A DNA stretch of 64,000 nucleotides from Alteromonas sp. (GTDB lineage Bacteria > Margulisbacteria > Marinamargulisbacteria > UBA6595), in the NCBI GenBank assembly GCA_964220215.1, contig CAXPTH010000021.1, positions 926 to 64,925 of the forward strand, given 5' to 3'. Under the pieces are notes generated by a model. The model searched no databases. It saw nothing but the letters and a program-made list of their open reading frames with translations, and had not been told where the DNA came from. Of this stretch, positions 10,740 through 42,560 are shown one piece after another; within the stretch, counting starts at the first letter, position 1, and each line of letters begins with the position of its first letter. The position numbers and the translations under genes are program-made.

Positions 10740-11126
10740 ATGAACACACACACAGCCCGATCCATAACCTGCAGAACCCTATTGGTTCCGGTTATGTCAG
10801 CACTCTTAATTCTGAGCTTCGCAATCGAAATCGCCACATTGCCCATAAACGCAACCCCACTGTACGCCGGTAACGTGGACATTTTGATTATCGAGTCCGA
10901 TACCTACTACATCGATGAAACCGACCCCACCCACGACGACTACCAGCACTACAACGACTACGATCAAGGATACAGCCCCTACGAATTGTATGGCGAGGAC
11001 CAAAACCAATACTGGGAAAGCCCCGCCGGCAATGTCTTTGACATCATCGAACAAAACCTAATGCTCGATAACCCCAATGACCAAGACGACGGCATTTATT
11101 TCCAAGACGGGTTCCAAACGATTTAA
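10740..11126 (+). CDS. Hypothetical small secreted/anchored acidic protein (D/Y/N/Q-rich)
   Basis: 128-aa ORF with an N-terminal hydrophobic signal-like segment (LLVPVMSALLILSFAIEIA). The remainder is strongly acidic and low in complexity. I recognise no family. Confidence 0.4.
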   Translation: MNTHTARSITCRTLLVPVMSALLILSFAIEIATLPINATPLYAGNVDILIIESDTYYIDETDPTHDDYQHYNDYDQGYSPYELYGEDQNQYWESPAGNVFDIIEQNLMLDNPNDQDDGIYFQDGFQTI

Positions 11127-11196
11127 CGCCTAAATTTTGCCCAGTCTATTGCTGAATAAACTCGACAAACGCACCCGTATCCAGTATTCTAGATAG

Positions 11197-12966
11197 ATGA
11201 CGAATGAACAACGCAGGCTAGCCGGTCACCTAAGCAGCCAAACGATCGGGGAAACCGTAACCCTCAACGGTTGGGTGGACGTGGTTCGCGACCATGGCCA
11301 ATTGCTTTTCATTCACTTGCGGGATCACACCGGTATCGTGCAAGTGGTTGTGGATCAGGACAATCCTCACTACGCCCAAAGCAAACAACTGCGTAGCGAG
11401 TACGTGATTGGGGTCACGGGCCCTGTGGTTGAACGCGAGGCATCGGCTAAAAACCCCGACATGCCCACCGGCGAGATTGAAGTGCATATTACCAGCCTCA
11501 TCGTTTTCAATACCGCTGAAACACCCCCGTTTGTTGTGAGTGAGAAAGACACCCACAGTGTCGATGAAGATATTCGATTGCAACACCGCTATCTGGATCT
11601 GCGCCGGCCCACCATGCAACAGCGGTTAATCCAACGGCACCGCATCGTCAAAACCATCCGCGATTACTTTGATCGGCATGACTTTATCGAAGTTGAAACC
11701 CCCATGCTCACCCGAAGCACGCCCGAAGGCGCTCGTGACTACTTGGTGCCCAGCCGCGTGCACGATGGCAGTTTCTATGCCCTGCCACAATCCCCCCAAC
11801 TGTTTAAACAATTGCTCATGATGAGTGGCTTGGGCCGCTACATGCAGATTGCACGGTGTTTCCGCGATGAGGACCTCCGCCCCAATCGACAACCCGAATT
11901 TACCCAGTTGGACTTTGAGGCCAGCTTCATTGATGAGCACTTTATTATGGATTTAATCAATCCCCTGATGCAGACATTATTTGCCGAAGCGAATCTCCCT
12001 TTTACACAACCCGTTCGCACCCTAACCTATGCCGATGCCATAGCCCGTTACGGCAGTGATAAGCCCGATCTGCGATTTGGTCTTGAGTTTGTTGACTTAT
12101 CCCCAGTATTTGGCGAGACAGCCTACAAAATTTTTCGAAGCATTTTAGACAACGGGGGCTGCATCAAAGGCATTCGACTCCCCAAGCAGTCCCCCAATTT
12201 AAGCAAAAGCCGACTCCAAGACCATTATGCCAAAACAGTCGTCCCGCAGTTGGGGGGTAAAGGGATGACGTGGTTGCGGGTTGTGGACAACCAACTCGAA
12301 TCCAGCGTGCTGCAATTCTTTTCAGATACAGAACAAGCCAACCTCAAAACGGCCATGGCTGCTGAATCCGATGATGTGATCATGATTATTGCCGATACCG
12401 ACCCACAGGTAGTGCACGATGTTTTGGGCGACCTACGCCTGCATGTCGCTCGGGATTTAGATTTAATTGATAGCCAAAAAGTCATCGGTTGCTGGATTAC
12501 CGAATTTCCACTATTTGAAAAACGCAACGGGCAACTTAATTTGTTGCATCACCCATTCACACAACCCACCACCGATATTACCCAACTCACAACGGAAGCT
12601 GAGTACCTAAGCATCACCGCTCGGGCCTACGATCTGGTCATCAATGGGGAGGAAATTGGGGGGGGTAGCATTCGGATTCACGATGCCACCATTCAAAACA
12701 AAGTCTTTGATATTGCCGGACTGAGCGATGCTGACATCCACGAAAAATTTGGGTTTTTTATCCAGGCGTTACAATACGGAACCCCACCGCATGGGGGCAT
12801 GGCTGTCGGATTGGACCGGCTCGTTGCCATGTTGTGCCAAACCGAGTCCATCCGCGACGTGATCGCATTTCCTAAAAATCGGATGGCCGTATGCCCGCTC
12901 ACCAAAGCACCGGCATCGGTCCACGCCGATCAACTCAACGAACTAAACATACAACTACGAGGTTAA
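11197..12966 (+). CDS. aspS: Aspartate--tRNA ligase
   Basis: 589 aa. N-terminal OB-fold anticodon-binding domain. Class II motifs (FIEVETPML, FRDEDLRPNRQPEFTQLD, GGMAVGLDRL). Confidence 0.95.
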   Translation: MTNEQRRLAGHLSSQTIGETVTLNGWVDVVRDHGQLLFIHLRDHTGIVQVVVDQDNPHYAQSKQLRSEYVIGVTGPVVEREASAKNPDMPTGEIEVHITSLIVFNTAETPPFVVSEKDTHSVDEDIRLQHRYLDLRRPTMQQRLIQRHRIVKTIRDYFDRHDFIEVETPMLTRSTPEGARDYLVPSRVHDGSFYALPQSPQLFKQLLMMSGLGRYMQIARCFRDEDLRPNRQPEFTQLDFEASFIDEHFIMDLINPLMQTLFAEANLPFTQPVRTLTYADAIARYGSDKPDLRFGLEFVDLSPVFGETAYKIFRSILDNGGCIKGIRLPKQSPNLSKSRLQDHYAKTVVPQLGGKGMTWLRVVDNQLESSVLQFFSDTEQANLKTAMAAESDDVIMIIADTDPQVVHDVLGDLRLHVARDLDLIDSQKVIGCWITEFPLFEKRNGQLNLLHHPFTQPTTDITQLTTEAEYLSITARAYDLVINGEEIGGGSIRIHDATIQNKVFDIAGLSDADIHEKFGFFIQALQYGTPPHGGMAVGLDRLVAMLCQTESIRDVIAFPKNRMAVCPLTKAPASVHADQLNELNIQLRG

Positions 12967-12970
12967 CATT

Positions 12971-14575
12971 ATGAGTCAAACTATTTTATTTTCTGAATTG
13001 GGATTATCCCAAGAAACACTGGCTGCCATCACAGCCAAAGGGTTTCAACACCCCACACCCGTTCAAGCTGAAACCATTCCGCGCATTCTGAACGGCACCA
13101 ATCATATTATTGCTCAAGCCCAAACAGGGACCGGAAAAACCGCCGCATTTGGCTTGCCCATTCTGGATACACTGGATTTTAGTGCCAAGCATACCCAAGC
13201 GTTAATTTTAGTGCCCACTCGGGAATTGGCCGGCCAAGTGTGTGCCGAATTGGTCTCCCTGTCGGGGCAAAACAAAAACACCATTATTCCCGTGTATGGC
13301 GGACAACCCATGGACACCCAATGCCGAGCCCTCAAGCGTGGGGCCTGCATCGTTGTGGGGACACCCGGCCGGGTCATTGACCATCTAAAACGCAAAACCT
13401 TGCGCGTGGATCAAGCGCGCTACTTGATTTTGGATGAAGCCGATGAAATGCTGAACATGGGCTTTATCGAAGACATTGAATCGGTTATGGAATACACCCC
13501 TAAAGATACCCGAATTTTACTCTTTTCTGCCACCATGCCGGATCGCATCCGAACCTTGGCCGCCAACTATATCCCCGATTACGAACACATCAAAATCAAG
13601 TCCAAAGCCGTCACTACCCCCCTCACCGAGCAACTGTACTTTGAGGTTAAAAATCGGGATAAATTCGAAGCGTTGTGCCGCATTATTGACCATCAAGTGG
13701 GGTTTTATGGCATGATCTTTTGCCGAACCAAGCGCGATGTCGATGAGATCAACAACCAACTGATTCAACGCGGCTATACCAGCGAGCCGATTCACGGCGA
13801 TATCAACCAAACCCAACGGGAACGCACGCTCAGCCGGTTCCGAAAAAAAACGATTCATATTTTAGTCGCAACCGATGTGGCCGCTCGTGGGATTGATGTA
13901 GACAACCTCACCCACGTTATCAATTATGCCCTACCCCAAGACCCAGAAAGCTACGTGCACCGGATTGGCCGAACCGGCCGGGCTGGCCAAAGCGGTACCG
14001 CTATTACCCTCATGACTAGCAACGAATACCGCCAACTGGTATTCATTCAAAAACTGGCCAAAACAACAATCGAACGCCGTCAATTACCGGCCGTGTCTGA
14101 AATTGTTGAAAACAAGAAAAAAAGCATTACCGATCGATTGGAATCTCAACGCGATACCCGTGTGGGCAACCAATACCGCCAATGGGCCGAAGAACTACTC
14201 ACCGATGCCGACCCAACCACCACGGTTGCCACCATTTTACAACACTGTTTTGACAGCGTACTTAGTACCGATCAATATGCCGATATTGACACGTCCGTTA
14301 AATCCGGAAAAAAAGGCCGAGACGGGGGCATGGACAGCCACGGAAAAGCCCGCTTGTTTGTGGCCAAAGGCAAACGCGACAAAATAACACCCAAAGGCAT
14401 TATTGCATTAATCAAAACCCATGTTAAAATTAAAGACTCGGATATCCGACAAATTCAAATCATGGAAAACTTTTCATTTGTAAATTTACCGTTTGATCAC
14501 GCCGAAACACTCGTGCGCAATCTAAAAAACAGCAACGAACGGCCCATCATTACCTACGCAAAAAAGAAGCGGTGA
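12971..14575 (+). CDS. DEAD-box ATP-dependent RNA helicase with DbpA-type C-terminal RNA-binding domain
   Basis: Motifs Q (GFQHPTPVQ), AQTGTGKT, DEAD, SAT and HRIGRTGRAG, followed by a C-terminal DbpA-like RBD. Confidence 0.9.
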   Translation: MSQTILFSELGLSQETLAAITAKGFQHPTPVQAETIPRILNGTNHIIAQAQTGTGKTAAFGLPILDTLDFSAKHTQALILVPTRELAGQVCAELVSLSGQNKNTIIPVYGGQPMDTQCRALKRGACIVVGTPGRVIDHLKRKTLRVDQARYLILDEADEMLNMGFIEDIESVMEYTPKDTRILLFSATMPDRIRTLAANYIPDYEHIKIKSKAVTTPLTEQLYFEVKNRDKFEALCRIIDHQVGFYGMIFCRTKRDVDEINNQLIQRGYTSEPIHGDINQTQRERTLSRFRKKTIHILVATDVAARGIDVDNLTHVINYALPQDPESYVHRIGRTGRAGQSGTAITLMTSNEYRQLVFIQKLAKTTIERRQLPAVSEIVENKKKSITDRLESQRDTRVGNQYRQWAEELLTDADPTTTVATILQHCFDSVLSTDQYADIDTSVKSGKKGRDGGMDSHGKARLFVAKGKRDKITPKGIIALIKTHVKIKDSDIRQIQIMENFSFVNLPFDHAETLVRNLKNSNERPIITYAKKKR

Positions 14576-17500
14576 CCCGCGTTATCGCGTTTTTTATTCA
14601 AAACCCCATTTGGGTCCGAGCCATTATGATCGGGCTGGTGGGGTTTGGTTTGGTATCCCTCAATAGCCTCAACAGTTCTTTTTTTGCACCCATTGACCCC
14701 AAAACCATCACCGTTTCAGCCACCTACCCCGGGGCATCCCCCGAAGAAATCGAACGGGGGATTATTTTAAAAATTGAATCCAATTTAACCAACCTGGACG
14801 GCATCGCCCGGATGACGTCCCAATCGTACGAAAACCGCGGAAGCCTAACCCTTGAACTCAAAAAAACAGCCAACGGCGCAACGGTCCTGGAAGACGTTAA
14901 ACAAGCCATTGACCGCATCAGCACCTTCCCCAGCGGCATGGAACCCCCCATCATTAGCAAAACCAAAATTATTGACCGGGCCATTCGCATTGTACTCACG
15001 GGGGATACCGATCTCAAAACCCTCAAAACAACCGCCAAAAAAATTGAAAACGACCTGAGAGCCTCCGGTAAAATCAGCATCATTGAGCTCAGCGGCTTTC
15101 CCAATGAAGAAATCGACGTCCAAGTCACCGAAGCCAATCTACTGGCCCACAACCTAACCATTCGTGCCGTGGGCCAAGCCATTCGCAATGCCAACATCGA
15201 AATCACCGGCGGGCAAATTGAGCAACGCAACGAAACCTTTCTCATCCGAAGCAATACCAAACGCTACACCGCTGCCGAATTGGGAAGTATTATTGTCAAA
15301 ACCAACCCCGATGGCAGTGTCGTGCGATTAACCGATATCGCCACCGTCACCGACGCCTGGGCCAATACCCCTTACGCCGTGTTTTACAACGGCCAGCCAG
15401 CCGTGACCATTGCCATTAATAAAACACCCAATGAAGATATTTTGGACATTGTTCGCACTGTTCGCCAGTATGCAACCACCTTCAATCAAACCCACACCGA
15501 TATCCAAGCCTACATCAGCGATGACCGCAGCATTAGCCTGCGCCAACGCATCGCCTTACTCTCTAAAAACGGCCTCATGGGCTTTGGCCTGGTCTTGGGT
15601 GTCCTGGGCTTGTTTTTAAACCTGTCCATCGCCTTTTGGGTCGCACTCAGCATCCCCTTATGCTTTATGGGCCTGTTTATTGTGGGCGGTTTTATCGACT
15701 TAACCATCAACGTCATTTCCCTATTTGGCATGATTGTGGTGGTGGGGATTTTGGTCGATGATGGCATTGTTATTGCCGAAAATATTTACCAAAAAATTGA
15801 ATCCGGCATGAACCGGCTCGACGCCGCCATCACCGGAACCGTGGAAGTCCTCCCGTCGGTTACCGCTTCCATCCTGACCACCATGATTGCGTTTATGCCC
15901 TTTTTTTTCATCGATGGCCGCATTTCGGATATTCTCAACGATATGGCCGTGGTGGTTATTATTACACTCGCTATTTCGTGGCTGGAGGGCGCCCTGATTT
16001 TACCGGCCCATATTGCCCATAGCACCCCCCGCCCCATTGGGGCACTCAAACACCGGTTTAATACCTGGGTCGATACCCTGCGCTACACACATTATGCACG
16101 CGCGCTTACACTGGTGTGCCGCCATCGCATCCTAACGGTCCTGGTACCCGTCGGGTTGCTCATGCTGACCCTGACAGCTGTTAAAAGTGGTCGGATTCCA
16201 TTTGCATTTTTCCCCTTTGTCGATTCCGATGCCATTACCGTCCAATTGGCCTTGCCCCCCGGTTCCAGTGAAACACGCACCCTCTATTGGCTGGATACCA
16301 TTGAGGCCAAGGCTATCGAAGTTAACCAAGCCTTTCAAGCCAAACGAGCCGATCAAAAACCCATTATTTTAGCCATTACCAAACAACTCACCGCCGATCA
16401 CAAAGGCCAAGTCTTCCTCCAATTACTCGATGGCGAAACCCGAAATTTAGAAAGCTTTCGCATTACCGAAGCCTTACGCACCGCCGTGGGCACCATCCCC
16501 GAGGCCCAGACCCTTGAATTTGGCTCTCGATCCTTTTTTGGCAAACCCGTTGAAATCTCACTCCTGGGAGACAATCCCAACACGCTCGCTACCGCCAAAG
16601 CCCAGCTCAAAGCCAAACTCATGGCCCACCCCAAACTCAAAGACGTGGTGGAGGCCGATGCCCAAGGCCTGCGTGAAATTCACATTGACCTAAAACCCAA
16701 CGCCTACCGATTGGGCTTCACCAGCCAACAAATTTTGCAACAAATCCGCGACAATATTTTTGGATATGAAGCCCAGCGCTTGCAACGTGGCGACGATGAT
16801 GTGAAAATTCGGGTCCGCTACACCGAGTCCGAACGGCAATCCATTGCCAACCTGGAACGCATGCAAATTTATACCGATTCGGGCCAGCGCTACCCCCTCA
16901 GCAGCTTGGCAGACTTCCGAATCCAACACGGGGTTTTGGCAATCAACCACTTAGATGGGTTCCGAGAAGCCACCGTGTCCGCCGCCTTGGCCAACACCCA
17001 AGCCCCACTCCCCCCCATTTTAGCCGATATCCAAACCACCATCGTGGCCCCCTTATTAACCCAATACCCCACCCTTACCGCCACCTTTGGGGGACAAAAA
17101 CGCGAAACCGATAAAACCACCCAATCGGCTAAAATTGTCTTGCTGGTACTAATTTCAGCCATGTTTATTGTCATTAGCGTGGGGTTGCACTCGTTTTTAC
17201 AAGCCAGCCTGGTCCTTCTGCTTGTCCCGTTCAGCTTCATTGGCGTCGCTTGGGGGCACGCCATTCACGGCATTAGCATTAATATCTTATCCACCTACGG
17301 GATCATCGCCCTCACCGGCATCACCGTTAATGATGCCATTGTGTTGATTAATCGCTTTAACCGCTGCATTCGTGACGGCGATCCGCTCAACACAGCCATC
17401 ATCACCGCGGCAACCACCCGATTCCGAGCCATTATTTTAACCTCCTTAACGACCATTTGCGGCCTGGGCCCCTTGATTTTTGAAACCAGCCGCCAAGCGC

Positions 17501-17718
17501 AGTTTCTCATCCCCATGGCCATTTCAGTTGCCTATGGGCTTATCATCACCACCGTGAGCATTTTGGTCATCGCCCCGCCATTGTTGCTGGGCCTCAATGC
17601 GTGCCGCCGCGGACTTCATTGGCTCAAAACCGGCCATTGGGTCACCCCCGAACAGGTGGAGCCAGCGTACCAGCACGCCCACGTGTATCGGTCATTAAAA
17701 AAAGGAGACACCGTATGA
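14572..17718 (+). CDS. RND efflux transporter permease (AcrB/HAE family)
   Basis: 1048 aa. 12-TM RND topology with two large periplasmic loops. GTG start overlaps the helicase stop (GTGA). Confidence 0.9.
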   Translation: MTRVIAFFIQNPIWVRAIMIGLVGFGLVSLNSLNSSFFAPIDPKTITVSATYPGASPEEIERGIILKIESNLTNLDGIARMTSQSYENRGSLTLELKKTANGATVLEDVKQAIDRISTFPSGMEPPIISKTKIIDRAIRIVLTGDTDLKTLKTTAKKIENDLRASGKISIIELSGFPNEEIDVQVTEANLLAHNLTIRAVGQAIRNANIEITGGQIEQRNETFLIRSNTKRYTAAELGSIIVKTNPDGSVVRLTDIATVTDAWANTPYAVFYNGQPAVTIAINKTPNEDILDIVRTVRQYATTFNQTHTDIQAYISDDRSISLRQRIALLSKNGLMGFGLVLGVLGLFLNLSIAFWVALSIPLCFMGLFIVGGFIDLTINVISLFGMIVVVGILVDDGIVIAENIYQKIESGMNRLDAAITGTVEVLPSVTASILTTMIAFMPFFFIDGRISDILNDMAVVVIITLAISWLEGALILPAHIAHSTPRPIGALKHRFNTWVDTLRYTHYARALTLVCRHRILTVLVPVGLLMLTLTAVKSGRIPFAFFPFVDSDAITVQLALPPGSSETRTLYWLDTIEAKAIEVNQAFQAKRADQKPIILAITKQLTADHKGQVFLQLLDGETRNLESFRITEALRTAVGTIPEAQTLEFGSRSFFGKPVEISLLGDNPNTLATAKAQLKAKLMAHPKLKDVVEADAQGLREIHIDLKPNAYRLGFTSQQILQQIRDNIFGYEAQRLQRGDDDVKIRVRYTESERQSIANLERMQIYTDSGQRYPLSSLADFRIQHGVLAINHLDGFREATVSAALANTQAPLPPILADIQTTIVAPLLTQYPTLTATFGGQKRETDKTTQSAKIVLLVLISAMFIVISVGLHSFLQASLVLLLVPFSFIGVAWGHAIHGISINILSTYGIIALTGITVNDAIVLINRFNRCIRDGDPLNTAIITAATTRFRAIILTSLTTICGLGPLIFETSRQAQFLIPMAISVAYGLIITTVSILVIAPPLLLGLNACRRGLHWLKTGHWVTPEQVEPAYQHAHVYRSLKKGDTV

Positions 17719-18833
17719 TTAAATCTGTAACCTGGGTTCGCCTTGGCCTTGGCCTTGGCCTTATACTCGCCATTGCCATACTCAACCACACCCTAGGACA
17801 ACCCGATAGCGACCCGGCACAATCCCCCCCACCGGCCCGCATCCCCATCGTGGACACCCAACCCGTCCGCAACCAAACCCACCGCGGCAGCCTCGTTGTC
17901 TACGGCCAAATTAAAGCCGTGGATACCGTGAACTGGGTAGCGGCTGTCCCTGGCGTTATTCAACCCACTCGCGTGCAGTTTCAAGCGGGGATTCCATTCA
18001 AAAAAGGCGATGTTCTCATTGCCATTGATAACCGCGAGCAACGCTATCAGCTCAATGCGGCCACCAGCGCATTCATGACCCGCATTATTCAACTCATCGC
18101 CGAGTTAGACATCGACTACCCCGACCAAGCCCCCCCATGGCGACAATTTTTAAGCCAAATCCAACTGGACCACCCCTTGCCCGAATTGCCCAACAGCGAT
18201 ACCCGCATCCGCTATCGCTTGGCCGCCCTAGGCATTTTAAGCGATTATTATGCCATCCAAAAGCAGGCCGTTGTGTTGGAAAAATACACCTTAATCGCCC
18301 CATTTGATGGCGCCGTGAAAACCAGTGCCGTTCGCCCCAACACCTACGTATCCCCCGGGCAGCCCTTGGGAACCATCATGGACCTCAGCCAGCTGCACAT
18401 CCACAGTGCCGTTCGTATGGAACAGGCGCAATTTCTAGATCCTGACAGCCCCGTTCAGGTGGCTGCCACAGCACTGAACCAAACCTGGACCGGCACCCTC
18501 ACCGCCATCAACGCCAACATCGACCCCAGCACCCAAAGTGTCCCCATTACGGTGGCCTTACCGCCTAAAACCAACGCTCGCGATGGCACCCACGTCTCCA
18601 TGACCACCACCACCCGACCCATCCCCAACGTGATGCGCATTGATCAACAGCTCCTCGTCAACAATACCGCCGTTTATGGCGTGGATGCCGCCACATTGGT
18701 CGCCTATCCCGTGACCGTCGTCTTGCGCGAAACCGATACCCTCTTGGTGCGGGGCCTCCCGGATAATCGGGTTATTTTGTCAAAGCCGGTACCCGGTGCC
18801 TACGTGGGCATGCCCGTACAACCCACACCATGA
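17715..18833 (+). CDS. Efflux RND periplasmic adaptor (membrane fusion protein)
   Basis: ATGA overlap with the RND stop. N-terminal anchor, a lipoyl/barrel-sandwich region (GVIQPTRVQFQAGIPFKKGDVLIAID), then a coiled-coil hairpin and beta-barrel region. Confidence 0.8.
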   Translation: MIKSVTWVRLGLGLGLILAIAILNHTLGQPDSDPAQSPPPARIPIVDTQPVRNQTHRGSLVVYGQIKAVDTVNWVAAVPGVIQPTRVQFQAGIPFKKGDVLIAIDNREQRYQLNAATSAFMTRIIQLIAELDIDYPDQAPPWRQFLSQIQLDHPLPELPNSDTRIRYRLAALGILSDYYAIQKQAVVLEKYTLIAPFDGAVKTSAVRPNTYVSPGQPLGTIMDLSQLHIHSAVRMEQAQFLDPDSPVQVAATALNQTWTGTLTAINANIDPSTQSVPITVALPPKTNARDGTHVSMTTTTRPIPNVMRIDQQLLVNNTAVYGVDAATLVAYPVTVVLRETDTLLVRGLPDNRVILSKPVPGAYVGMPVQPTP

Positions 18834-20026
18834 GCCGCTGGGTGCTACTGATTTTACTGTGGGTGGGGCTGTGTACCCACACGCAGGCAGCCCTAACCTT
18901 AGATGCAGCGCTTCAACACACCTTGGCCAACAATTACGCCATCCAGATTGCCCATACCCAAGCGGCCCGTGCCCAAACCCAAACTGGCCTGAGCCAAGCC
19001 AATCTCTTGCCCACCATTACCGTTCGCCAAACCAAGACCGATCAACCCACCAGAACCCCGGGCATCAGCACTCAAACCAACCAAACTACTCAAACCACCG
19101 GGACCATTCAGCAAACCCTCTTTGCGGGACTCACCGGCATTACCCAGTGGCGCAAAAACAAATCGTTGGCCGATCTGACTCAACTGCAAGCCGAACAGGT
19201 CTTGGAAACCACCCTGTATACCACCACGTTGGCGTTTTATGACCTGGTGGAGGCCCAGTATCGGCTGGCCGTTGCTGAATCGGTTGTTGCCCTATCGGAA
19301 GACCGGCTCAACCGTGTCCGGATTCGGGCGGACCTGGGCGGGGAGTCCCAGTTGGCGGTACTCAATGCGACTGTGGATTTGAATACCGACAAAACAGAAT
19401 ACCAGAACGCCTTAGCGGCACGCAAAGCCGCCGAAATCCAGCTCAACCAACAGCTCAACCAAGCCTTAGACACCCCGCTCACGGCGGAATTACCGCCGCC
19501 CCTATCCGTGCCCACTTCCGGCATTCGTCAGAATCGGGCGATTCGCATTGCTGAGCAGTCGCATCGGTTATCGCAGTTGGATCAGCAGTTGGTGCTGGGT
19601 GCGCTATTCCCGAGTGTCACGGTTCGGCATACGATGCAAGACGCCCGGGAACCGATCAATACCCTCGAAGCTCAGTGGTCATTGACTGGATGGCGCCATA
19701 AACAGGCGTGGGATGCTGCGACGCTGACCCATGCCGAAACGAATTTAAACAGAGCCCGTGTCCGGCAATTGGTGCAGGCCCAATGGGCCCAAGCTTTGGT
19801 GGATTATGACCGCACGCGGACGTTGCAGGCGCATGAGTTGGAGACAGTTCGGGTGGCGAAGCGGAATTTTGAGCGCACGCAGGCGTTGTTTCATGCGGGG
19901 CAAGTGTCTGCGTTGGTGTTTCGGGATGCCCAGTTAAAATACACCCAAAGCCAGTACCGCGCCCACCAGGCTCAGATTCAGTTGGGCAAAGCCATTGCCC
20001 GAGTGCATCAACTAGCGGGGGGTTGA
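18830..20026 (+). CDS. TolC-like outer membrane efflux protein (OEP family)
   Basis: ATGA overlap with the MFP gene. Signal peptide, then an OEP repeat beginning LTLDAALQHTLANNYAIQIA. Two internal OEP repeats. Confidence 0.8.
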   Translation: MSRWVLLILLWVGLCTHTQAALTLDAALQHTLANNYAIQIAHTQAARAQTQTGLSQANLLPTITVRQTKTDQPTRTPGISTQTNQTTQTTGTIQQTLFAGLTGITQWRKNKSLADLTQLQAEQVLETTLYTTTLAFYDLVEAQYRLAVAESVVALSEDRLNRVRIRADLGGESQLAVLNATVDLNTDKTEYQNALAARKAAEIQLNQQLNQALDTPLTAELPPPLSVPTSGIRQNRAIRIAEQSHRLSQLDQQLVLGALFPSVTVRHTMQDAREPINTLEAQWSLTGWRHKQAWDAATLTHAETNLNRARVRQLVQAQWAQALVDYDRTRTLQAHELETVRVAKRNFERTQALFHAGQVSALVFRDAQLKYTQSQYRAHQAQIQLGKAIARVHQLAGG

Positions 20027-23000
20027 GGTTGTTGTTTGGATTTGGGGTTGGTTTTGGGATCGGCTTTGGGTTTGGTAGCGGCTGATTTGGTAGCGGCTTT
20101 GGCTTTGGGATCGGCTTTGGCTTTGGCTTTGGGATCGGCTTTGGCGGCAGCTTCGGCGGCTTTGGCTTCTTTGCGGGCTTTGGAATCGGCGGCGGCGGCG
20201 GCGGTAGCGGCGGCGTTTTTGGCTGATTGTTTTGCGGCTTTTAATATTACTTCGGCGTTTTCGACTTTGGTTTGGGCAAAACTGATTTTTCTACTTAACT
20301 CATTATTGCGGTCTTTGATTTGTCGGATGCATTCTATAATTTCTTCATTATTCTCAAAACCTTGGGCAGCTCTATTTGCCTCAATCAATAAATCATCGAC
20401 ACGTTGCCTCTCTTGTTTAACTTTTTCCATATATTCTTGTGTTTCTGCTAATTGACTTGCCGCTTTATCAACTTTCGTTTTAGAATTTTCTTCTAATTGT
20501 GGGGGGGTGCCTATGTCACTATTTTTCAATTTTTCTTTTGCATTTTGAACAGCCTGCAAAGCTTCTTTTAACTTCGATAGTTTCTCTTCAATGTTTATAA
20601 CGACTTGATTGGCAGCTTCAGCGGCTTTATTGGCAGCTTCAGCGGCTTTATTGGCATCGGCAGCGACTTGATTGGCAGTTTCAGCGGCTTTCTTGGCAAT
20701 TAATTTAGTTTCTTCTCCTAAGTATGTTTTATTGTCGGCAGCTTTAGCGGCTGTCTCGGCAGCTTCAGTAACTTTTTCCATGGTAGCTTTGGCAGCTTCA
20801 GCGGCTTGTTTGGCATCGGCAGCGGCTATCTTGACAATTTGGACAGCATCTTCAAGTTTATTAACATTGGGAGCAGTTTTAGCCCTGTTCTTGGCATTAG
20901 TGGCAGCGGTCTGGGCATTTGCAGCAAAATCCTTGGCAGTGGCAGCAAAAGCTTTGACTTCTTTTAATAAATTTTCAACATCTTTATTCGGGTTTAACCG
21001 CATTTCTTCCGATTTATGACATTCCTTCAAATGCTTAAGTTGATCAATACCATAATCAGATTTGTCTCCTTTATCCATGGTTGCTTCCAGAGCACTCAAG
21101 TCTACAACCATTTCCTGGATTATTGCTAAAAGTTGTTTGTATTTTTCCCGTCTTATATCTCCTCCCTGACCACGTTCTAATATATTTTCTTTCAGATTAT
21201 TTTGAAACCATGTTGAAAATTCTACATTTATTTTTGGTGAGAGTGTACCTTCAATTTTTAAACGAATACCATCAAGATAGTTTCTATTAGTATCTTCGCT
21301 ATTATTTAAAATTTTAGGCAATAAGTCGTTCTCCTTATATGTTTCTCCGTTTGTTCCATAATACTCAGCTACTAATTTCTTAATACTATTAAAATCTTTT
21401 TGATTAGTCAAAGTAAGAAAAGCCTTTTGTTTAGCCGCAAGCAGGTCCTTTTGATCACCTATATCAAGACTTTCTTGAGGCTTTAGGGCATCTATTAAGG
21501 CCTTTATCTTTTCTTTTAATTTTTCAGGGTAACTTTTATCCAATTCTGTTTCTTCTAGCACTTGAACAACAGCTTTAAATTTACTTTCATGTTTTTTATA
21601 TTTGCCACATGGGAAAATGGTTTTCATCTCTTTTGTAAAATCTTCTGCATTAATTCGCTCTAGCGCAAGATCTTGCAATGTTGAAATAAAATCAACTGCA
21701 TCCTTGTCAGTAGCGTCGTTTTTATCAACACTTAAAAGACTGTTAACAATATTCATTTTAACCTCTGCCCGTTTTGATATAACCATCATGTTGAGCATAT
21801 CTTTAGCATAGGGATCTGTATTCAAATCTTTGTTTAAGTGCTCTATTATTCTTTCTCTGTTTTGTTTACCGTAGTATGTGATTTGTCCAAGTGATTCTTT
21901 TTCAGATCTGCGATACCGCCCAATAAATTGAACCACATTCATAGATGCCCCTGATTCCATTAAATTGTCCGATGCAATATGAAACTCTACAGCTAGATTA
22001 TCACCGTCTGCAGGTTGTTTAGAAGAACTAGAAAACTCATCAAAATCATGGCCATAACAGTTATCCCCAAAGTAGACAAAATCAATTTTATTTTTTGCTA
22101 CTGTTTGTTTTTTCAAAAACTCCACTGCTTTGTCTTTGCTAGTAAATGTTTGTGTCACTACATCGGTTGTAATTTCATACTCTCTTGACTTAACAATAAC
22201 ATACTCTCTTGACTTAACAAAAACCCGTGTTCTATTAGTATTTTGAGAAAATGAAGTTTGTTCATCACTAAGCCAAAAGTACCGTTGTTTCTCAGGATCT
22301 TCACCCAAAACAGAATCAATAGTTTCTTGTGTTTGTGGTGTATTCAAATTCTTATTAAGATCAATCGCTATCAACTGGTTAATTTGTGAGACTGCCGCAT
22401 CTCTATGTTGACCAAGGGTTGCATCAGTTGCATCATCAAATGTCAATTCTTTTAAACGAGACTTTATATTCTCGAGTTCATCTTTATTCAGTTTTAATTC
22501 TGTTAGTTCTTTTAATGTGGCCAACCAATTCGCTAGATAAGCGGTTGTCCCTGGTGATGTAGCAATATACTGATGGACGCCAATATTCAAACTCATATTA
22601 TTTAAAAATGCTTGGCATATGTATACTAAGTCATTTGAGTCTCCAATTGATGCTTTAAATATTTTCTTTTTATCATCTGGGATTATATTACACAAGCCTT
22701 GTATAAAGTCTTGTTTTTCTTTTTGTTCTGAGTCTGAAAATGTATGCCTCTCATCAAAAATAAATGCTATAGTATCAGTTTGTTTTGCAGAATCGTCAGA
22801 GGCTTGTTCGGGACTTTGTATTCTGCTTAATTCTGTCTCAACAGCTTCCAGAAATTTTGTAGTTTTTTGTTCCATTTCATTTTCAAAACCAGGAATTGGT
22901 GAAAATAAATGAACATTTGGTTTTTTCATTGATTGCATCATCGTCATCAACGCCGTTTTACCGGCTCCAGTCCCCGCTGACCATCGGTTATAAAGGCCTT

Positions 23001-26000
23001 TTGTTGGTTTCTTCGAAATAAAATATTGGACCACCTGCTCCTGAGTTGGAATTTTTTTAGATGCGTTAACGAGTTCTGCAAAACATTGGTTTATAGATTC
23101 ATTTGCTAGATCAGCATCTGTCCATGGAATTCCAGTCTTACCAAGACTATCTTGTACATCTTGTGTTGTATATGACTTCAAAAAATCAGTCATACTATAC
23201 TTTCTTCCTTTTAATGTGGGGTCATTATAATACCTCAAACTTCCTGCATGTTTTTTTAGTGTCACCATTGCGATCACCGTTTCTATATTTGGGAAGGGGG
23301 GGGGAGATCCATCTGCTGTTGTATCTGCTGTTGTATTTGATGAGTTAGCTTTTTGATAAAGATCAGCGAATTTGCCTTTACTTTTGGTTAAACCTGTTTG
23401 TGATAATTTTTCTAAAACAGCTTGTATTTGTTCAATATATGTGGGTGGATTTGTTCCTGAGCTCCCTGCTGACGTAGCCGTTGTACCCTTCCTTTCAAAT
23501 TTATCCTTCAGAAAAGCCAAACGAATCATTTCTTCATTTTTATTTAATTGATTTTCTGTTTCTGTTTCTTTAGACCATTCAGCAAGTGTTTCCATATTGT
23601 CACTGTATTTTTGGATGGTTTGGATGGTTGTGCTGTGGTTTGAATCACTTCTTTGAACGTCTAATCCTTTGAGATATTCTAGATAGTCTTGAACCGCTTG
23701 CTGTTTTTGGGATTTGATATCAGTTTCTAACTCTCCCAAAGCTGTTGCTAAATCTTCCACAGCTTTTGTAGCCTCTTTTTTGGCTGTTTGGGCTGTTTGG
23801 GCGTCTGGAACACCATCACCCTCGGCACCGAGCACTGCGCTGTATTCCGTATCGGCTGCCTCTAGACTACTCTGAAGTTCTTCATGCTTTTGGTCTGCTT
23901 TTAAATCGTTTAACTGCTCCACTATCGCCTGAAGGGCTGCAATTTTGGCAGCTGGGGCTGCGCCTGAAGCTGTGGATGGTATCGCTTTTTTTGTGTCTTC
24001 TATCTTGACTGTTGCTGCCTTGGCTTGGGTGGTAATGGATTCATACGCTGCTGTCGCTGCTTCCGCTGCCAACCGCTCTTCTTCTACTCTTATAACTGCT
24101 TCTAACTCCCCCAAAGCTGACACAGCGGTTGTGGCGTTTTGTTTGGCTGTTATAGCCTTTGTTTGGGCTTCTGTAGCCTTTTTTTGGGCTTCTGGAACAC
24201 CCTCAGCACCGAGCACGCCGCTTTTTGTTGCTTCTTTATCGACTTGATCTAGACGCTCTTTAAGTGTTTGATAACTTTTCGTTTGGTATTCTTTTAATTC
24301 TTTTAACTGCTCCACTCTCTCCTGAAGGGCTTCAATATTGCCCTCTGAAGCTGGGTCTTCGCCTGAAGCTGTGGCTGGTATCGCTTCTTCTAATTTTGTT
24401 TTTATCTCGGTTGTTGCTTCGTTGGCTTTGGTGGTAATTTCTCCATACGCTTTTTTAGCCGCTTCTGCTGCTTCCGCTGCCAACCGCTCTTCTTCCGCTT
24501 TTCGGGCCGCTTCTGCTGCTTCCGCTGCCACCCGCCTTTCTTCCGCTTTTTTCGCTGCTTCCGCTGACTCTTTTCGGGCCGCTGCCTCTGCTTTTTCTAA
24601 TTCTCCCACAGCTTTTCCTAACGCTTCCACAGCTACTTTAGCTTCTTCTATCTTGCCTGTTGCTGCCTTGGCTTCGGTGGTAATGTCTCCATACTCTGCT
24701 ATCGCTGCGGCGGCTTTTTTCGCCGCTTCCGCTTCCGCTTTTCGGGCCGCTTCCGCTGCTTCCGCTGCCAACCGCTCTTCTTCCGCTTTTCGGGCCGCTT
24801 CCTCCGCTTTTTTCGATTCGAGGGATTGGATAGATTCTTCTAAAGTTCCCAAAGCTTTTTTTAACGCTTCCACAGCTGTTTCTAAAGCTTTCACAGCTCC
24901 TTCGGCTCCTTTTTTGGCTTCTACACCATCCGCACCGAGCACTGCGCTGTATTCCGTATCGGCTGTTTTTAGACGATCTGCAAGTTGTTTATAAAGTTCC
25001 GGTTGTTCTGCTTGTAATGGTTTTAACTGCTCCACTATCGACTGAAGGGCTGCAATCTTGGCAGCTGTGTCTTCGCCTGAAGCTGAGGCTGTTTTCGCTG
25101 CTTCTACTTCTCTTTTCGCTGCTTCTGCTTTTTGTATCTCGGCTGTTGCTTCGTTGGTAATTAGTACATACTCTGCTATCGCTACTGCGGCTTGGATGGC
25201 TTTGATGGCTTCTTCGGCTGTTGTTTGGATGGCTTCGTTGGATTTTTCTTTGATGTCTTTGATGGCTTTGATGGATGCTTCGGCTGTTGTTTGGATGTCT
25301 TGGATGTCTTTTTCGGCTGTTGTTGGGATGGGTTTGATGTCTTTTTCGGCTTTTTCTTGGATGGCTTGGATGGCTTTTTCTTTGATGGCTTTGATGGCTT
25401 CTTCTTGGATGGCTTGGATGGCTTGTGCTTTGATGTCTTCATTGGCTTGGATGTCTTGGATGGCTTGGATGGCTTCGTCTTTGATGAAGCGGATGTCTTT
25501 GATGAAGAGGATGTCTTGGATGTCTTTTTCGGCTTTTTCTTTGATGGCTTTTTCTTTGATGGATTTGATGCCTTCTTTGAATGTGTCTGGGATGTCTTTG
25601 ATGGCTTTTTCTTTGATGGCTTTGATGGCTTTTTCTTGGATTTTTTGGATTTTTTGGATGGCTGCTTCCACTCTCACCTTACGAACTTTATACGCCGCTT
25701 GTATCTTTTTTGTGGCGGCTTCTTTTTTCGCCGCTTCCGCTGCGGCTTTTTCCGCTGCCACCCGCTTTTCTTCCGCTTTTTGGGCCTTTTTGCCTTCTTT
25801 CGTTTGTGTGTCTAAGAGGACTTGTTGAGCGTCTTCTTCCGCTAAGCGGAGGATGTCTTCCAGTATGTTCGCCACTGATTCAGAATTTTTGGGGTCATTG
25901 AGTGCTTTTTTTAGTGCTTCCGCTGATTCACTAAGACTTTTACTACTACTACCACCAGCAGCATCCTTGGGAGTACCACCAGTGCCATCGGCTACACTTA

Positions 26001-26895
26001 ATTTTAACTTTTCCACAGCTTCTTTGGCTGCTTCTTGGGCTTCTTGGGCTTCTTTAGCTTCAGCAATATCCAGACTGTCATCTTTGGACAACTCATTGTA
26101 TTCTTCATCGACTTCCTTTAGACGATTTTCAAGACTTTTGCGGTCGTTTCTTAACTTACTTTTTAAAGCTTCTAAATTTTCCCGAAATTTTTCAAGATCT
26201 AACTCTGATTTGTTTTCTATATGATCTTGTACTGTTTTTAAGTGTGTTTTACACTCATAAACTACCTCTCCAAACTTTCGTTCGGCCTCTAGTTTAATTA
26301 ATTCATAGTCTTTTTTTATTTTTTGGAGTTTGAGCGCCTTAATTTTATTTTCGAGTTCCTTAATTTGAACTTCGGTATTGTCACTTTTAGTTTGATGTTG
26401 AGCCCTGAGTTCTTGAAGTTCTTCTGTTAATTCGCTAATCTTATCTTGGTTTGATTGAATTTCGTTTGCGAGTTCGTTTGTGAGTTCTGATGCTTTAGAT
26501 TGATTAAAGTGATTGGCAAATTTTTCAGCTTCATAGTCAAAATATGCACCTATCCCATAACCCAAAACGCCAGCACCGAAGCCAGTACCCGCACCCGCAG
26601 TAAGAGAAATAAGGAAAACCCATCCTACAGGACCAGTTGCCAAAGCAAGAGCTACGGCAATACCTAAAGCGGTTCCCCCCAGTCCCCCCCCAGCTCCATA
26701 TTGTTGACGATAATTTGATGACCTTGATGTTGGTGAAAAACTAACTGGTGATTGTGTAATTGACGGTTTGATTTTTGAAATTGGATCTGGAACTATCCCT
26801 TGAAATGGAGCTGAAGCTTTATTTTCCCTTGGATTTATTAGACCTGGAACTATCTTTGGATCTGAACCTGAACCTGGAGTTACACCGGATGACAC
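20008..26895 (-). CDS. Giant hypothetical protein (2,295 aa): membrane hairpin, coiled-coil repeat scaffold, embedded P-loop/DExH-like NTPase, K/A/P basic tail
   Basis: Uninterrupted 6,888-nt ORF. GTG start follows a GGAGG Shine-Dalgarno site. Walker A GTGAGKT (res 1308-1314), IAFIFDERH (D1381-H1384), FIGRYRR (res 1657-1663). No family recognised. Confidence 0.8.
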   Translation of the reverse strand: MSSGVTPGSGSDPKIVPGLINPRENKASAPFQGIVPDPISKIKPSITQSPVSFSPTSRSSNYRQQYGAGGGLGGTALGIAVALALATGPVGWVFLISLTAGAGTGFGAGVLGYGIGAYFDYEAEKFANHFNQSKASELTNELANEIQSNQDKISELTEELQELRAQHQTKSDNTEVQIKELENKIKALKLQKIKKDYELIKLEAERKFGEVVYECKTHLKTVQDHIENKSELDLEKFRENLEALKSKLRNDRKSLENRLKEVDEEYNELSKDDSLDIAEAKEAQEAQEAAKEAVEKLKLSVADGTGGTPKDAAGGSSSKSLSESAEALKKALNDPKNSESVANILEDILRLAEEDAQQVLLDTQTKEGKKAQKAEEKRVAAEKAAAEAAKKEAATKKIQAAYKVRKVRVEAAIQKIQKIQEKAIKAIKEKAIKDIPDTFKEGIKSIKEKAIKEKAEKDIQDILFIKDIRFIKDEAIQAIQDIQANEDIKAQAIQAIQEEAIKAIKEKAIQAIQEKAEKDIKPIPTTAEKDIQDIQTTAEASIKAIKDIKEKSNEAIQTTAEEAIKAIQAAVAIAEYVLITNEATAEIQKAEAAKREVEAAKTASASGEDTAAKIAALQSIVEQLKPLQAEQPELYKQLADRLKTADTEYSAVLGADGVEAKKGAEGAVKALETAVEALKKALGTLEESIQSLESKKAEEAARKAEEERLAAEAAEAARKAEAEAAKKAAAAIAEYGDITTEAKAATGKIEEAKVAVEALGKAVGELEKAEAAARKESAEAAKKAEERRVAAEAAEAARKAEEERLAAEAAEAAKKAYGEITTKANEATTEIKTKLEEAIPATASGEDPASEGNIEALQERVEQLKELKEYQTKSYQTLKERLDQVDKEATKSGVLGAEGVPEAQKKATEAQTKAITAKQNATTAVSALGELEAVIRVEEERLAAEAATAAYESITTQAKAATVKIEDTKKAIPSTASGAAPAAKIAALQAIVEQLNDLKADQKHEELQSSLEAADTEYSAVLGAEGDGVPDAQTAQTAKKEATKAVEDLATALGELETDIKSQKQQAVQDYLEYLKGLDVQRSDSNHSTTIQTIQKYSDNMETLAEWSKETETENQLNKNEEMIRLAFLKDKFERKGTTATSAGSSGTNPPTYIEQIQAVLEKLSQTGLTKSKGKFADLYQKANSSNTTADTTADGSPPPFPNIETVIAMVTLKKHAGSLRYYNDPTLKGRKYSMTDFLKSYTTQDVQDSLGKTGIPWTDADLANESINQCFAELVNASKKIPTQEQVVQYFISKKPTKGLYNRWSAGTGAGKTALMTMMQSMKKPNVHLFSPIPGFENEMEQKTTKFLEAVETELSRIQSPEQASDDSAKQTDTIAFIFDERHTFSDSEQKEKQDFIQGLCNIIPDDKKKIFKASIGDSNDLVYICQAFLNNMSLNIGVHQYIATSPGTTAYLANWLATLKELTELKLNKDELENIKSRLKELTFDDATDATLGQHRDAAVSQINQLIAIDLNKNLNTPQTQETIDSVLGEDPEKQRYFWLSDEQTSFSQNTNRTRVFVKSREYVIVKSREYEITTDVVTQTFTSKDKAVEFLKKQTVAKNKIDFVYFGDNCYGHDFDEFSSSSKQPADGDNLAVEFHIASDNLMESGASMNVVQFIGRYRRSEKESLGQITYYGKQNRERIIEHLNKDLNTDPYAKDMLNMMVISKRAEVKMNIVNSLLSVDKNDATDKDAVDFISTLQDLALERINAEDFTKEMKTIFPCGKYKKHESKFKAVVQVLEETELDKSYPEKLKEKIKALIDALKPQESLDIGDQKDLLAAKQKAFLTLTNQKDFNSIKKLVAEYYGTNGETYKENDLLPKILNNSEDTNRNYLDGIRLKIEGTLSPKINVEFSTWFQNNLKENILERGQGGDIRREKYKQLLAIIQEMVVDLSALEATMDKGDKSDYGIDQLKHLKECHKSEEMRLNPNKDVENLLKEVKAFAATAKDFAANAQTAATNAKNRAKTAPNVNKLEDAVQIVKIAAADAKQAAEAAKATMEKVTEAAETAAKAADNKTYLGEETKLIAKKAAETANQVAADANKAAEAANKAAEAANQVVINIEEKLSKLKEALQAVQNAKEKLKNSDIGTPPQLEENSKTKVDKAASQLAETQEYMEKVKQERQRVDDLLIEANRAAQGFENNEEIIECIRQIKDRNNELSRKISFAQTKVENAEVILKAAKQSAKNAAATAAAAADSKARKEAKAAEAAAKADPKAKAKADPKAKAATKSAATKPKADPKTNPKSKQQPQPPAS

Positions 26896-27076
26896 TACTA
26901 CCTCCCCACTATTTTTAGACTGTATTTTCTAATAAAACTACAAGCCAGTATACAACAAAAAAATTGAAATGTCAATGTTTTAATAAAAAACTGACCGGCT
27001 AGTTTAACTACTATCCATTGCTGATACATACCAACAGAATGCCCCCTCGATGAGAACTTTAAACCTGTCCGTTGCA

Positions 27077-27250
27077 CTTAAAAGTCCCCTTTAGGGGATT
27101 TAGGGGCCTAGGGATTTAGGGGCTTAGAAAGTCCCCTTTAGGGGATTTAGGGGCTTAGAAAGTCCCCTTTAGGGGATTTAGGGGCCTGGGGGTAGTGGCT
27201 TGGGGATTTAGGGACTTGGGAGTAGTGGCATAGGAATTTAGGGGCCTAGG
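27077..27250. repeat. G-rich tandem repeat array (~31-bp period) with embedded TCCCCTTTAGGGGA hairpins
   Basis: Two perfect 31-bp copies of TTAGAAAGTCCCCTTTAGGGGATTTAGGGGC at 27124-27154 and 27155-27185, plus a near copy at 27077-27107. Degenerate ~30-bp units continue to ~27245. Six GG(G/A)ATTTAGGG(G/A) cores. Confidence 0.85.
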
Positions 27251-27261
27251 AGTTTAATCAA

Positions 27262-27834
27262 TTACCAGATCCCGCCAGCGCCATACGGCGTGCCAGAACT
27301 TGTGTTGGCATCCATCGAACGAACATCCCGTGGTGTGGACCCATAATGCCTATTATTGAAGCTATTTACGGTGCTCAGATTGTCTAAATTGTCTAAATTA
27401 TCTAAATCTGTTAAACCCAAGTACGCATCCACAATCCCTGAAAATACCGTATAGTCATTGGAAAACGTTAGCGCAATGCCCCCGAAGTCCGTATCCTGGA
27501 CAATCGCTACCGATGGGGCTACCGCTTCCACATAATCCAACGGAAATTGAGGATCCAACGAAACCCGAAACACCACCGCATACGCCGCCGGTTGCAACGG
27601 CCCCAAATCAAACACCCCCGACGGCTGGGTAATTACAGCATCAGACACCACCCGATCGGTCTGAATATTAATCACATACACCGCAATCGGTCGTACCGAA
27701 TTTTGAATAACGCCCCGCATGGATGCCCCCACAATCGGGGTTGACAGTGACACACAAATCACACAAAATAGTACAACGATTATGCGCAACCTGTTTCCCA
27801 ATCGCTTGTCTACTTTGCCTACGTTTAATTGCAT
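27262..27834 (-). CDS. Hypothetical secreted protein (possible carboxypeptidase-regulatory-like beta-sandwich) with DNL repeat
   Basis: 190-aa ORF with a signal-like N-terminus (RLRIIVVLFCVICVSLSTPIVGA). (DNL)x3 is encoded by a 9-bp tandem repeat at 27379-27414. The fold call is weak. Confidence 0.5.
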   Translation of the reverse strand: MQLNVGKVDKRLGNRLRIIVVLFCVICVSLSTPIVGASMRGVIQNSVRPIAVYVINIQTDRVVSDAVITQPSGVFDLGPLQPAAYAVVFRVSLDPQFPLDYVEAVAPSVAIVQDTDFGGIALTFSNDYTVFSGIVDAYLGLTDLDNLDNLDNLSTVNSFNNRHYGSTPRDVRSMDANTSSGTPYGAGGIW

Positions 27835-40137: not shown

Positions 40138-40155
40138 TACACTAACGAGAGAATT

Positions 40156-42557: not shown

Positions 42558-42560
42558 ACC

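Follow-up and report, generated by a model that had tools for sequence, protein, structure and literature searches.

A diverged putative P-loop NTPase module in a hypervariable giant protein of marine Margulisbacteria

The giant gene and the architecture of its product

We analyzed a 64,000-nucleotide (nt) stretch of Marinamargulisbacteria DNA, called the window here (contig CAXPTH010000021.1, positions 926 to 64,925 of the forward strand; all coordinates below are those of the window). Its minus strand holds, between 20008 and 26895, one uninterrupted open reading frame (ORF) that on translation begins with GTG, stops at 20008-20010, and encodes 2,295 amino acids (aa). An earlier note on this DNA, made from its letters alone, had placed in the middle of this giant ORF the core of a superfamily 2 (SF2) helicase of the DExH type, set between long coiled coils and tethered by a membrane hairpin. 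We consider it very probable that the center of the protein has a P-loop NTPase fold, and the overall explanation toward which we lean by a small amount is a diverged P-loop module of the ASCE (additional strand, catalytic glutamate) type within a membrane-hairpin, long-armed, lineage-specific protein of marine Margulisbacteria. An identical protein is encoded on contig JBERCX010000021.1 of NCBI assembly GCA_041228815.1, and a second assembly holds a 99%-identical copy. The position of the gene is constant across three genomes or contigs: it lies in the equivalent place on two related contigs, L001 (L001:1-2548, from the metagenome-assembled genome [MAG] 'bacterium UBP8_UBA6595') and L002 (L002:1-3562, JGI contig Ga0255759_10001120), where its neighbors are an AcrB-HlyD-OEP efflux operon, a DEAD-box helicase gene, and an aspartyl-tRNA synthetase gene. 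The MAG UBA6595 has been treated as a Marinamargulisbacteria genome (PMC6349859). The parts of the gene and its product are as follows.

20008..26895, minus strand: giant ORF, 2,295 aa
26695..26895, minus strand: N-terminus, residues 1-67, Ser/Pro-rich (S 19%, P 15%), without a signal-peptide-like segment
26536..26694, minus strand: putative membrane hairpin, residues 68-120, a Gly/Ala-rich double hydrophobic segment
23716..26535, minus strand: helical arm 1, residues 121-1060 (about 940 aa), coiled-coil-like, Ala/Glu/Lys-rich, with internal repeats
20926..23715, minus strand: globular center, residues 1061-1990 (about 930 aa), the best-conserved part between alleles in a conservation profile against L002
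20146..20925, minus strand: helical arm 2, residues 1991-2250 (about 260 aa), Ala-rich, cassette-like, hypervariable
20011..20145, minus strand: basic tail, residues 2251-2295, Lys/Ala/Pro-rich, with KADPKAKA repeats

Kyte-Doolittle windows of 19 residues exceeded 1.4 only at residues 67-111 (maximum, 2.03), and the Gly/Ala-rich double segment of 54 aa is the sole strongly hydrophobic part of the protein, so that the membrane hairpin of the earlier note was borne out as a single double segment at residues 67-111/120. The coiled coils said to flank the core were also recovered. Both arms are Ala/Glu/Lys-rich (A+E+K is 49% in arm 1), and a periodicity of 3.5 to 3.6 residues gave z=8.6 for arm 1 and z=8.5 for arm 2 versus z=2.0 for the center, which has an ordinary globular composition. 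Arm 1 carries many in-frame tandem DNA repeats and gave weak matches to the Golgin and Spectrin families of Pfam, and about 55% of the giant protein is helical rod. The basic tail consists of 27% K, 27% A, and 18% P with no Glu at all and resembles histone-H1-like basic tails; that of the L002 allele differs, ending in KAKAKPKPKAK.

Motifs in the globular center

The following elements were located in the center.

22954..22980, minus strand: Walker A (motif I) SAGTGAGKT, residues 1306-1314; AGTGAGKT is invariant in five alleles
22744..22770, minus strand: Walker B (motif II) IAFIFDERH, residues 1376-1384, with DERH at 22744-22755; invariant in five alleles
21907..21933, minus strand: VQFIGRYRR, residues 1655-1663, an exact QxxGRxxR (the motif VI pattern); invariant in the window allele, L002 (P0002), and L001 (P0004)
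23035..23049, minus strand: PTQEQ, residues 1283-1287, a candidate for a Q-motif-like element, located 20 residues before the P-loop
22882..22908, minus strand: LFSPIPGFE, residues 1330-1338, a candidate motif Ia-like strand and loop
22549..22566, minus strand: IATSPG, residues 1444-1449, possibly motif III-like (SAT) or sensor-1-like, and ambiguous between the two
22033..22071, minus strand: FGDNCYGHDFDEF, residues 1609-1621, a candidate motif V-like element, conserved in all alleles
22176..22224, minus strand: 24-nt tandem duplication giving KSREYVIV-KSREYEIT (residues about 1558-1573)

The first three of these lie exactly at the residues and nucleotides given in the earlier note, and each is unchanged in every allele that covers it. 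Chance occurrence was assessed by shuffling the residues of the whole giant protein 20,000 times with its composition kept. A loose Walker A alone arose in 22.6% of the shuffles, Walker A followed 40 to 160 aa later by hhhhDE in 0.43%, Q..GR..R anywhere in 0.42%, and Walker A followed 230 to 500 aa later by Q..GR..R in 0.015%. All three motifs in order appeared in 0 of 20,000. These figures somewhat overstate significance, because the motifs were picked after the sequence had been read. In hhalign comparisons, the Walker A motif aligned to the P-loops of both SF2 and AAA+ profiles, and IAFIFDERH, in which DExH ends a hydrophobic strand, aligned to the SF2 'llIvDEaH' block. The distance from motif I to motif VI is 346 aa, within the 272 to 595 aa spanned by 11 SF2 controls; the earlier view that a spacing of about 355 aa fits two RecA-like lobes therefore stands as far as the distance goes, but a second lobe was not detected (see below). 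The spacing from Walker A to Walker B is 71 aa, compared to 83 to 296 aa in 12 controls, and this segment contains one strand predicted in a low-confidence model, a long helix, and a variable acidic linker of about 14 aa.

A search for the further SF2 motifs that the earlier note had proposed to look for (Ia, III, IV, and V) yielded candidates for Ia, III, and V, but the region where IV would lie is the least conserved of the core and holds the 24-nt duplication. PTQEQ falls within the sub-threshold alignment to Pfam DEAD described below (query 18-96 to profile 3-82) and pairs with 'pt~~Q' in a greedy hhalign alignment. The residues 'hlfspi' of the Ia candidate align by hhalign to the SF2 'ilil~P' block, and the low-confidence AlphaFold model has a strand at 1328-1331. 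IATSPG lies in a block that is 90% identical to L002 and was aligned by none of the profiles, and FGDNCYGHDFDEF pairs with the SF2 'vlVaT~i~~~GiD' block solely in a greedy, nonsignificant hhalign alignment. The duplication (TRF: period 24, 2.0 copies, 96% matches) lies in a stretch, residues 1551-1580, with 23% identity to L002 and with indels. The L002 and P0001 alleles are without it and have RVIVNPDGYTI at that place. Directly after QFIGRYRR, the stretch ITYYGKQNRERIIEHLNKDLNTDPYA (window about 21796-21885, residues about 1671-1700) resembles a consensus tetratricopeptide repeat (TPR); its profile matches to designed CTPR proteins are nonsignificant (E 0.1-0.4).

Similarity of the center to P-loop NTPases

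Two parts of the center were scanned separately, a first lobe (residues 1267-1470) and a second lobe (residues 1540-1720). For the first lobe alone, the sub-threshold Pfam matches were mostly to P-loop families. Pfam DEAD was the top or second match, with E=1.1e-3 and 2.3e-3 in two alleles (18 to 19 bits versus a cut-off of 26), and ResIII followed at E=0.07-0.3. The first lobe of the L002 allele matched AFG1_ATPase (E=1.4e-3), ZapE (E=4.8e-3), and AAA_22 (E=0.046), and a shorter sub-segment of the window allele's first lobe matched AAA_30 (E=0.16). When aligned by hhalign to the SF2 lobe-1 profile, the first lobe scored 29.8 versus 12.0 +/- 1.5 for column shuffles, which is 11.6 standard deviations above them, and it reached 84% against an AAA+ core profile over 26 columns covering the P-loop, alpha1, and beta2. 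Together with the motifs, these matches support the P-loop core proposed in the earlier note. As far as sequence can show, the module would be of the ASCE type, with a Walker A motif followed by a Walker B motif that carries a catalytic-type Glu on a hydrophobic strand, and extremely diverged.

Comparison with SF2 helicases

The SF2 lobe profiles were built from ten or eleven proteins, comprising UvrB (second lobe only), RhlE, RecQ, RecG, HsdR, RapA, Lhr, RadD, HrpB, and SecA of Escherichia coli K-12 and the window's own DEAD-box helicase. A homology search with E. coli RadD, meant to provide a deep ResIII profile, returned only orthologues of 82 to 99% identity. In leave-one-out comparisons, true SF2 families, including the divergent SecA, HsdR, and HrpB, reached 97.2 to 99.5% for lobe 1 and 88.8 to 99.5% for lobe 2. 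The first lobe of the giant protein reached 27% over 29 columns around Walker B. On the SF2 lobe-1 profile, ABC ATPases equaled or surpassed this value (YejF, 77%), and the lobe-1 signal is therefore not specific to SF2. The second lobe reached 0.4% against the SF2 lobe-2 profile, with a score of 14.4 versus 11.0 +/- 2.0 for column shuffles, over only 21 columns around motif VI in which QFIGRYRR was paired with Q~iGRagR, and in Pfam it had no Helicase_C match even at E<=10. A gap-tolerant chain of motif position-specific scoring matrices gave z=2.3 for lobe 1, whose score of 49.7 was exceeded by the ABC and AAA+ controls and by all SF2 leave-one-out scores (at least 65), and z=1.0 for lobe 2, with a score of 18.2 versus at least 40.6 in all true SF2 proteins.

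These results do not support the placement of motif VI in a Helicase_C-like second lobe. What holds of the SF2/DExH reading is the motifs, their order, and the weak DEAD similarity of the first lobe, but recognition of that lobe by a profile at a curated threshold was not obtained. The module resembles SF2 proteins in the order and wording of its predicted motifs (Q-like PTQEQ, TGAGKT, DERH, and QxxGRxxR), and an SF2 affinity of its first lobe is weakly supported. Its descent from SF2 is a tentative proposition that we hold to be somewhat less probable than descent from elsewhere, and the evidence at hand does not justify filing the module as an SF2 helicase. Beyond this protein, the case cautions that an SF2 helicase call needs more than three textbook motifs in the correct order.

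Homologues and host lineage

Scans of the whole giant protein with Pfam, NCBIfam, and PADLOC found nothing, and when the two lobes were scanned individually with PHROGs and NCBIfam, the matches were only noise. With PADLOC-DB 2.0, neither the whole protein nor its center had a match at E<=1, and segments matched only at E >=0.002 and at most 15 bits. A phmmer search of PDB sequences with core residues 1166-1798 returned no helicase or P-loop match, and neither did PDB profile searches of either lobe, which returned only weak matches to consensus-TPR designs. No relatives of the giant protein were found in a scan of viral contigs, and no match to it was found in the E. coli genome. An exhaustive HMMER search with residues 1080-1990 against 1.84 billion representative proteins recovered nothing but the protein itself, three close fragments, and a repeat protein judged to be spurious, and word-indexed searches recovered five close fragments, all from marine metagenomes (e.g., TARA_067 surface, 0.22-0.45 um fraction). 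Judged by these searches, the giant-protein family is an orphan confined to Marinamargulisbacteria.

The repeat protein, P0007, is a 1,345-aa tandem-repeat adhesin-like protein that was rejected as a homologue, its E=1e-8 being the sum of four near-identical repeat matches of about 40 bits each. Residues 1429-1530 of the giant protein, AFLNN...IATSPGTTAYLANWLATLKEL, matched it four times at 30 to 33% identity, and the recurrence of the pattern S-x-G-x-T-A-x-L-A-x-W is curious. On a short JGI contig (L004:68-1352), the homologue P0008 ends just past Walker B, and the next gene overlaps it in another frame; this frameshift may reflect either a pseudogenized allele or an assembly error.

Variability of the giant gene

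The window and L002 belong to the same species by their flanks, which are 98.3% identical over 9.4 kb (10740-20115), and the point at which this identity breaks down coincides exactly with the 3' end of the giant gene. In the flanking genes, the proportion of synonymous differences (pS) was 0.009 to 0.026, rising to 0.16 in the adjacent OEP gene. This raised value (0.16 versus about 0.01 to 0.03 farther out) looks as if recombination tracts spill into the OEP gene. In the center of the giant gene, nucleotide identity was 80%, the proportion of nonsynonymous differences (pN) was 0.18, and pS was 0.16, giving an NG86 omega near 1, a method that can overestimate omega where codon usage is skewed. 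Arm 2 had a pN of about 0.5 and a pS of about 0.7 and was not alignable by BLASTP. The opposite pattern was obtained with L001, which represents a different species: pS was 0.63 to 0.67 in the flanks versus 0.175 in the center of the giant gene and 0.04 at residues 1601-1720. Arm 2 of the window allele is 41% identical over 177 aa to that of L001 and had no BLASTP match to that of L002. The G+C content at third codon positions (GC3) is 0.25 to 0.36 in the giant gene versus 0.51 to 0.65 in its flanks.

On these comparisons, the alleles are decoupled from the genome phylogeny and appear as a mosaic exchanged among Marinamargulisbacteria under little amino-acid constraint. The ORF itself would be maintained by selection, because 2,295 AT-rich codons stay free of stops. 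Conservation of the motif blocks among 'orthologues' was considered as a sign of selection and dropped; synonymous sites there are equally conserved, and invariance of the motifs among alleles is for that reason weak evidence of catalytic constraint. In its behavior the gene is closer to loci of the conflict or antigen type than to genes for housekeeping enzymes. Because it is hypervariable, low in GC3, exchanged between lineages, and has a dN/dS of about 1, a conflict role seems likelier than a housekeeping one, and we regard a conflict-related role (toward phage, host, or competitor) as evenly poised.

Weighing the explanations

Several observations weigh against a catalytic P-loop module. 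No profile or structure search assigns the module to any family at a curated threshold, and the AlphaFold2 models are of low confidence, with a pLDDT of 35.6 from the single sequence and 39.4 from a six-sequence alignment. The Foldseek matches are meaningless because these models are unusable; those of the second model were partial matches to ASKHA kinases with a target-normalized TM of about 0.2, all matches having a TM of at most 0.25 and none being a helicase. Even the blocks that bear the motifs have a dN/dS of about 1, so the conservation among alleles offers no positive evidence for purifying selection on catalytic residues. The location of the protein, its NTPase activity, and the binding role of its tail are all matters that we infer.

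A genuine SF2 (DExH) enzyme with two lobes, helicase or translocase, in which motif VI of a second RecA-like lobe would serve as the arginine finger and fast evolution would have erased all but the catalytic motifs, is possible though doubtful. It would explain the motif triple, which no shuffle reproduced, and the exact Q..GR..R at an SF2-typical distance from motif I. Likenesses to the SF2 DExH/D proteins (N-lobes of Pfam DEAD, PF00270, and ResIII, PF04851; RadD and HrpB) include a TGAGK[ST] P-loop identical to those of RadD and HrpB, a hydrophobic strand ending in a motif II of the DExH form, and the sequence P-[ST]-x-x-Q some 20 residues ahead of the P-loop. Pfam DEAD is the best and most consistent top match, although sub-threshold, and its alignment starts about 20 residues before the P-loop. 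RadD was the best single-sequence hhalign partner among 11 E. coli SF2 proteins (18.5%), colinear from Walker A to Walker B, and the greedy hhalign alignments were colinear for Q, I, Ia, and II and for V, VI, and the terminal strand. Against such an enzyme stands a second RecA lobe that left no trace in the Pfam, hhalign, and chain comparisons, its hhalign score being in the shuffle range, when all control SF2 families, SecA, HsdR, and HrpB among them, passed the leave-one-out calibration that the giant protein failed. Its first lobe scored below ABC and AAA+ ATPases on the SF2 profile, the 71-aa spacing from I to II is below that of all controls (at least 83 aa) and would leave no room for an Ib unit, the putative motif IV region is poorly conserved and duplicated, and the low-confidence model has an antiparallel beta-meander at 1536-1584 rather than a beta-alpha-beta arrangement. 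The setting of the core between arms of about 940 and 260 aa, with a membrane-hairpin anchor, also differs from SF2 proteins. The main rival to SF2 descent is a compact ASCE module of another class, that is, a single-domain NTPase, AAA+/AFG1-like or STAND-like, followed by helical and unrelated alpha/beta or TPR-like domains, with a fortuitous QxxGRxxR; we judge it unlikely. The 71-aa segment with its acidic linker of about 14 aa has room for one beta-alpha unit and is nearer to AAA+ controls (52 to 68 aa) than to SF2, which gives a compact Walker A-alpha-beta-alpha-Walker B layout like that of AAA+/AFG1 (ZapE) ATPases. In the L002 allele, AFG1_ATPase and ZapE matched across both Walker motifs, beside the AAA_22 match; the second lobe lacks an SF2 signal; and a TPR-consensus-like stretch comes right after QFIGRYRR. 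However, the 84% match to the AAA+ profile is confined to 26 columns around the P-loop and is not class-specific, because ABC and SF2 controls reach 90 to 94% on that profile, and the AFG1 match is missing from the window's own allele. The hhalign alignment stops after beta2, with no sensor-1, arginine-finger, or lid region aligned, the P-loop has the form TGxGKT and not the AAA+ form PGxGKT, no NACHT or NB-ARC match was found, and a Q..GR..R in the right interval is expected by shuffling at only about 1.5e-4.

Chlamydial Inc proteins have an unstructured N-terminus, a bilobed hydrophobic segment of about 50 aa, and coiled coils, and they are much smaller and without an NTPase core. The giant protein could likewise be structural, fibrous, or antigenic and evolve fast, whether exposed at the surface or secreted as an Inc-like effector that inserts into membranes, with Walker motifs that are decayed relics or noncatalytic nucleotide sites; this we consider quite improbable. 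The likeness is one of architecture only, in that a bilobed hydrophobic segment of 40 to 60 aa (67-111/120) near the N-terminus is followed by helical periodicity and a long coiled coil, and in that both are lineage-specific, fast-evolving orphans. A dN/dS of about 1 throughout, the hypervariable locus, the cassette-like arms, the low GC3, and the large share of helical rod all suit this explanation, and the Marinamargulisbacteria include an intracellular symbiont of Trichoplax (PMC6784892). Nevertheless, the catalytic-type residues are intact in every allele, and conservation is highest in the globular center, a fact that a purely structural role leaves unexplained. The protein has no signal peptide, no secretion-system gene was found in the 64-kb window, whose remaining genes are housekeeping ones (tRNA synthetases, DnaE, LigA, CarB, and transporters), relatives were recovered from size fractions of free-living cells (e.g., TARA 0.22-0.45 um), and nothing here points to type III secretion or a host-associated lifestyle.

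Possible role of the giant protein

For the diverged ASCE module in a hairpin-anchored protein, which we prefer, a cytoplasmic location of the protein's bulk is probable. The absence of a signal peptide, together with a hairpin that returns the chain to its starting side, makes the C-terminal 2,170 residues, including the NTPase, most simply cytoplasmic. The hairpin would keep both ends of the protein on one side of the membrane and leave the NTPase in the cytoplasm with access to ATP. There it could work as a switch or motor driven by nucleotide and carried by a long helical stalk, which would be based at the inner face of the membrane and reach far from it. The basic tail is a candidate binder of nucleic acid or another polyanion, and the hypervariability may point to a fast-evolving interaction partner such as phage. 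To our knowledge, the succession of hairpin, long arm, NTPase, second arm, and basic tail has no described counterpart.

The Zorya antiphage system combines a ZorA tail and a ZorD helicase and is membrane-anchored with a long coiled coil. Like this system, the giant protein combines an ATPase of helicase-like type with a helical stalk of great length and a membrane anchor, and its locus is hypervariable and island-like, but it is a single polypeptide without a MotAB-like channel or a recognizable effector domain, and it has no PADLOC match. A joint reading as a single-polypeptide conflict module, in which an SF2-derived motor sits on a helical stalk of more than 100 nm from the hairpin, the tail binds nucleic acid, and the gene is under diversifying selection and cassette exchange, is improbable, more so than any explanation weighed above. 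Such a module could be a membrane-tethered sensor or translocase acting on incoming phage DNA or an Inc-like effector in a host membrane.

If the core is active, it would represent a P-loop NTPase lineage that is invisible to sequence methods. No locus seen here varies more than the giant gene, which comes from a candidate phylum that only sequence data have revealed. Its near-identical flanks, a core of about 80% identity, a cassette-swapped C-terminal arm, and alleles that cross species would indicate strong diversifying pressure on small pelagic Margulisbacteria, of which phages, grazers, or hosts may be the source.

Expression signals and neighboring features

Two further elements lie upstream of the giant gene.

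26947..26975, minus strand: sigma-70-like promoter TTGACA-17-TATACT, 11/12 matches, the best promoter-like site within 19800-27400
27094..27253, no strand assigned: tandem-repeat array of about 31-nt units with TCCCCTAAAGGGGA palindromes, between the upstream ORF and the giant-gene promoter

A Shine-Dalgarno sequence, GGGGAGG, is found at 26901-26907, 5 nt ahead of the GTG start. The repeat unit of the array is GGGGATTTAGGGGCTTAGAAAGTCCCCTTTAG, and all five matches to the TCCCCTAAAGGGGA motif fall within the array, compared to a chance expectation of 0.03. The array could be a set of terminators, or it could serve in regulation or recombination at the border of the variable locus. The ORF beyond it (27262-27834, minus strand; 152 to 190 aa) encodes a hydrophobic segment at its N-terminus as well as a repeat of Asp, Leu, and Asn (LDNLDNLDNL), and it matched no Pfam or NCBIfam family. 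At its other end, the giant gene overlaps by 19 nt (20008-20026) with the 3' end of the convergent OEP (TolC-like) gene. A second, milder dip in GC content (0.455 to 0.462) occurs at 40001-44000, over genes for a Na/Pi cotransporter, a Na/H exchanger, and a PhoU-like protein.

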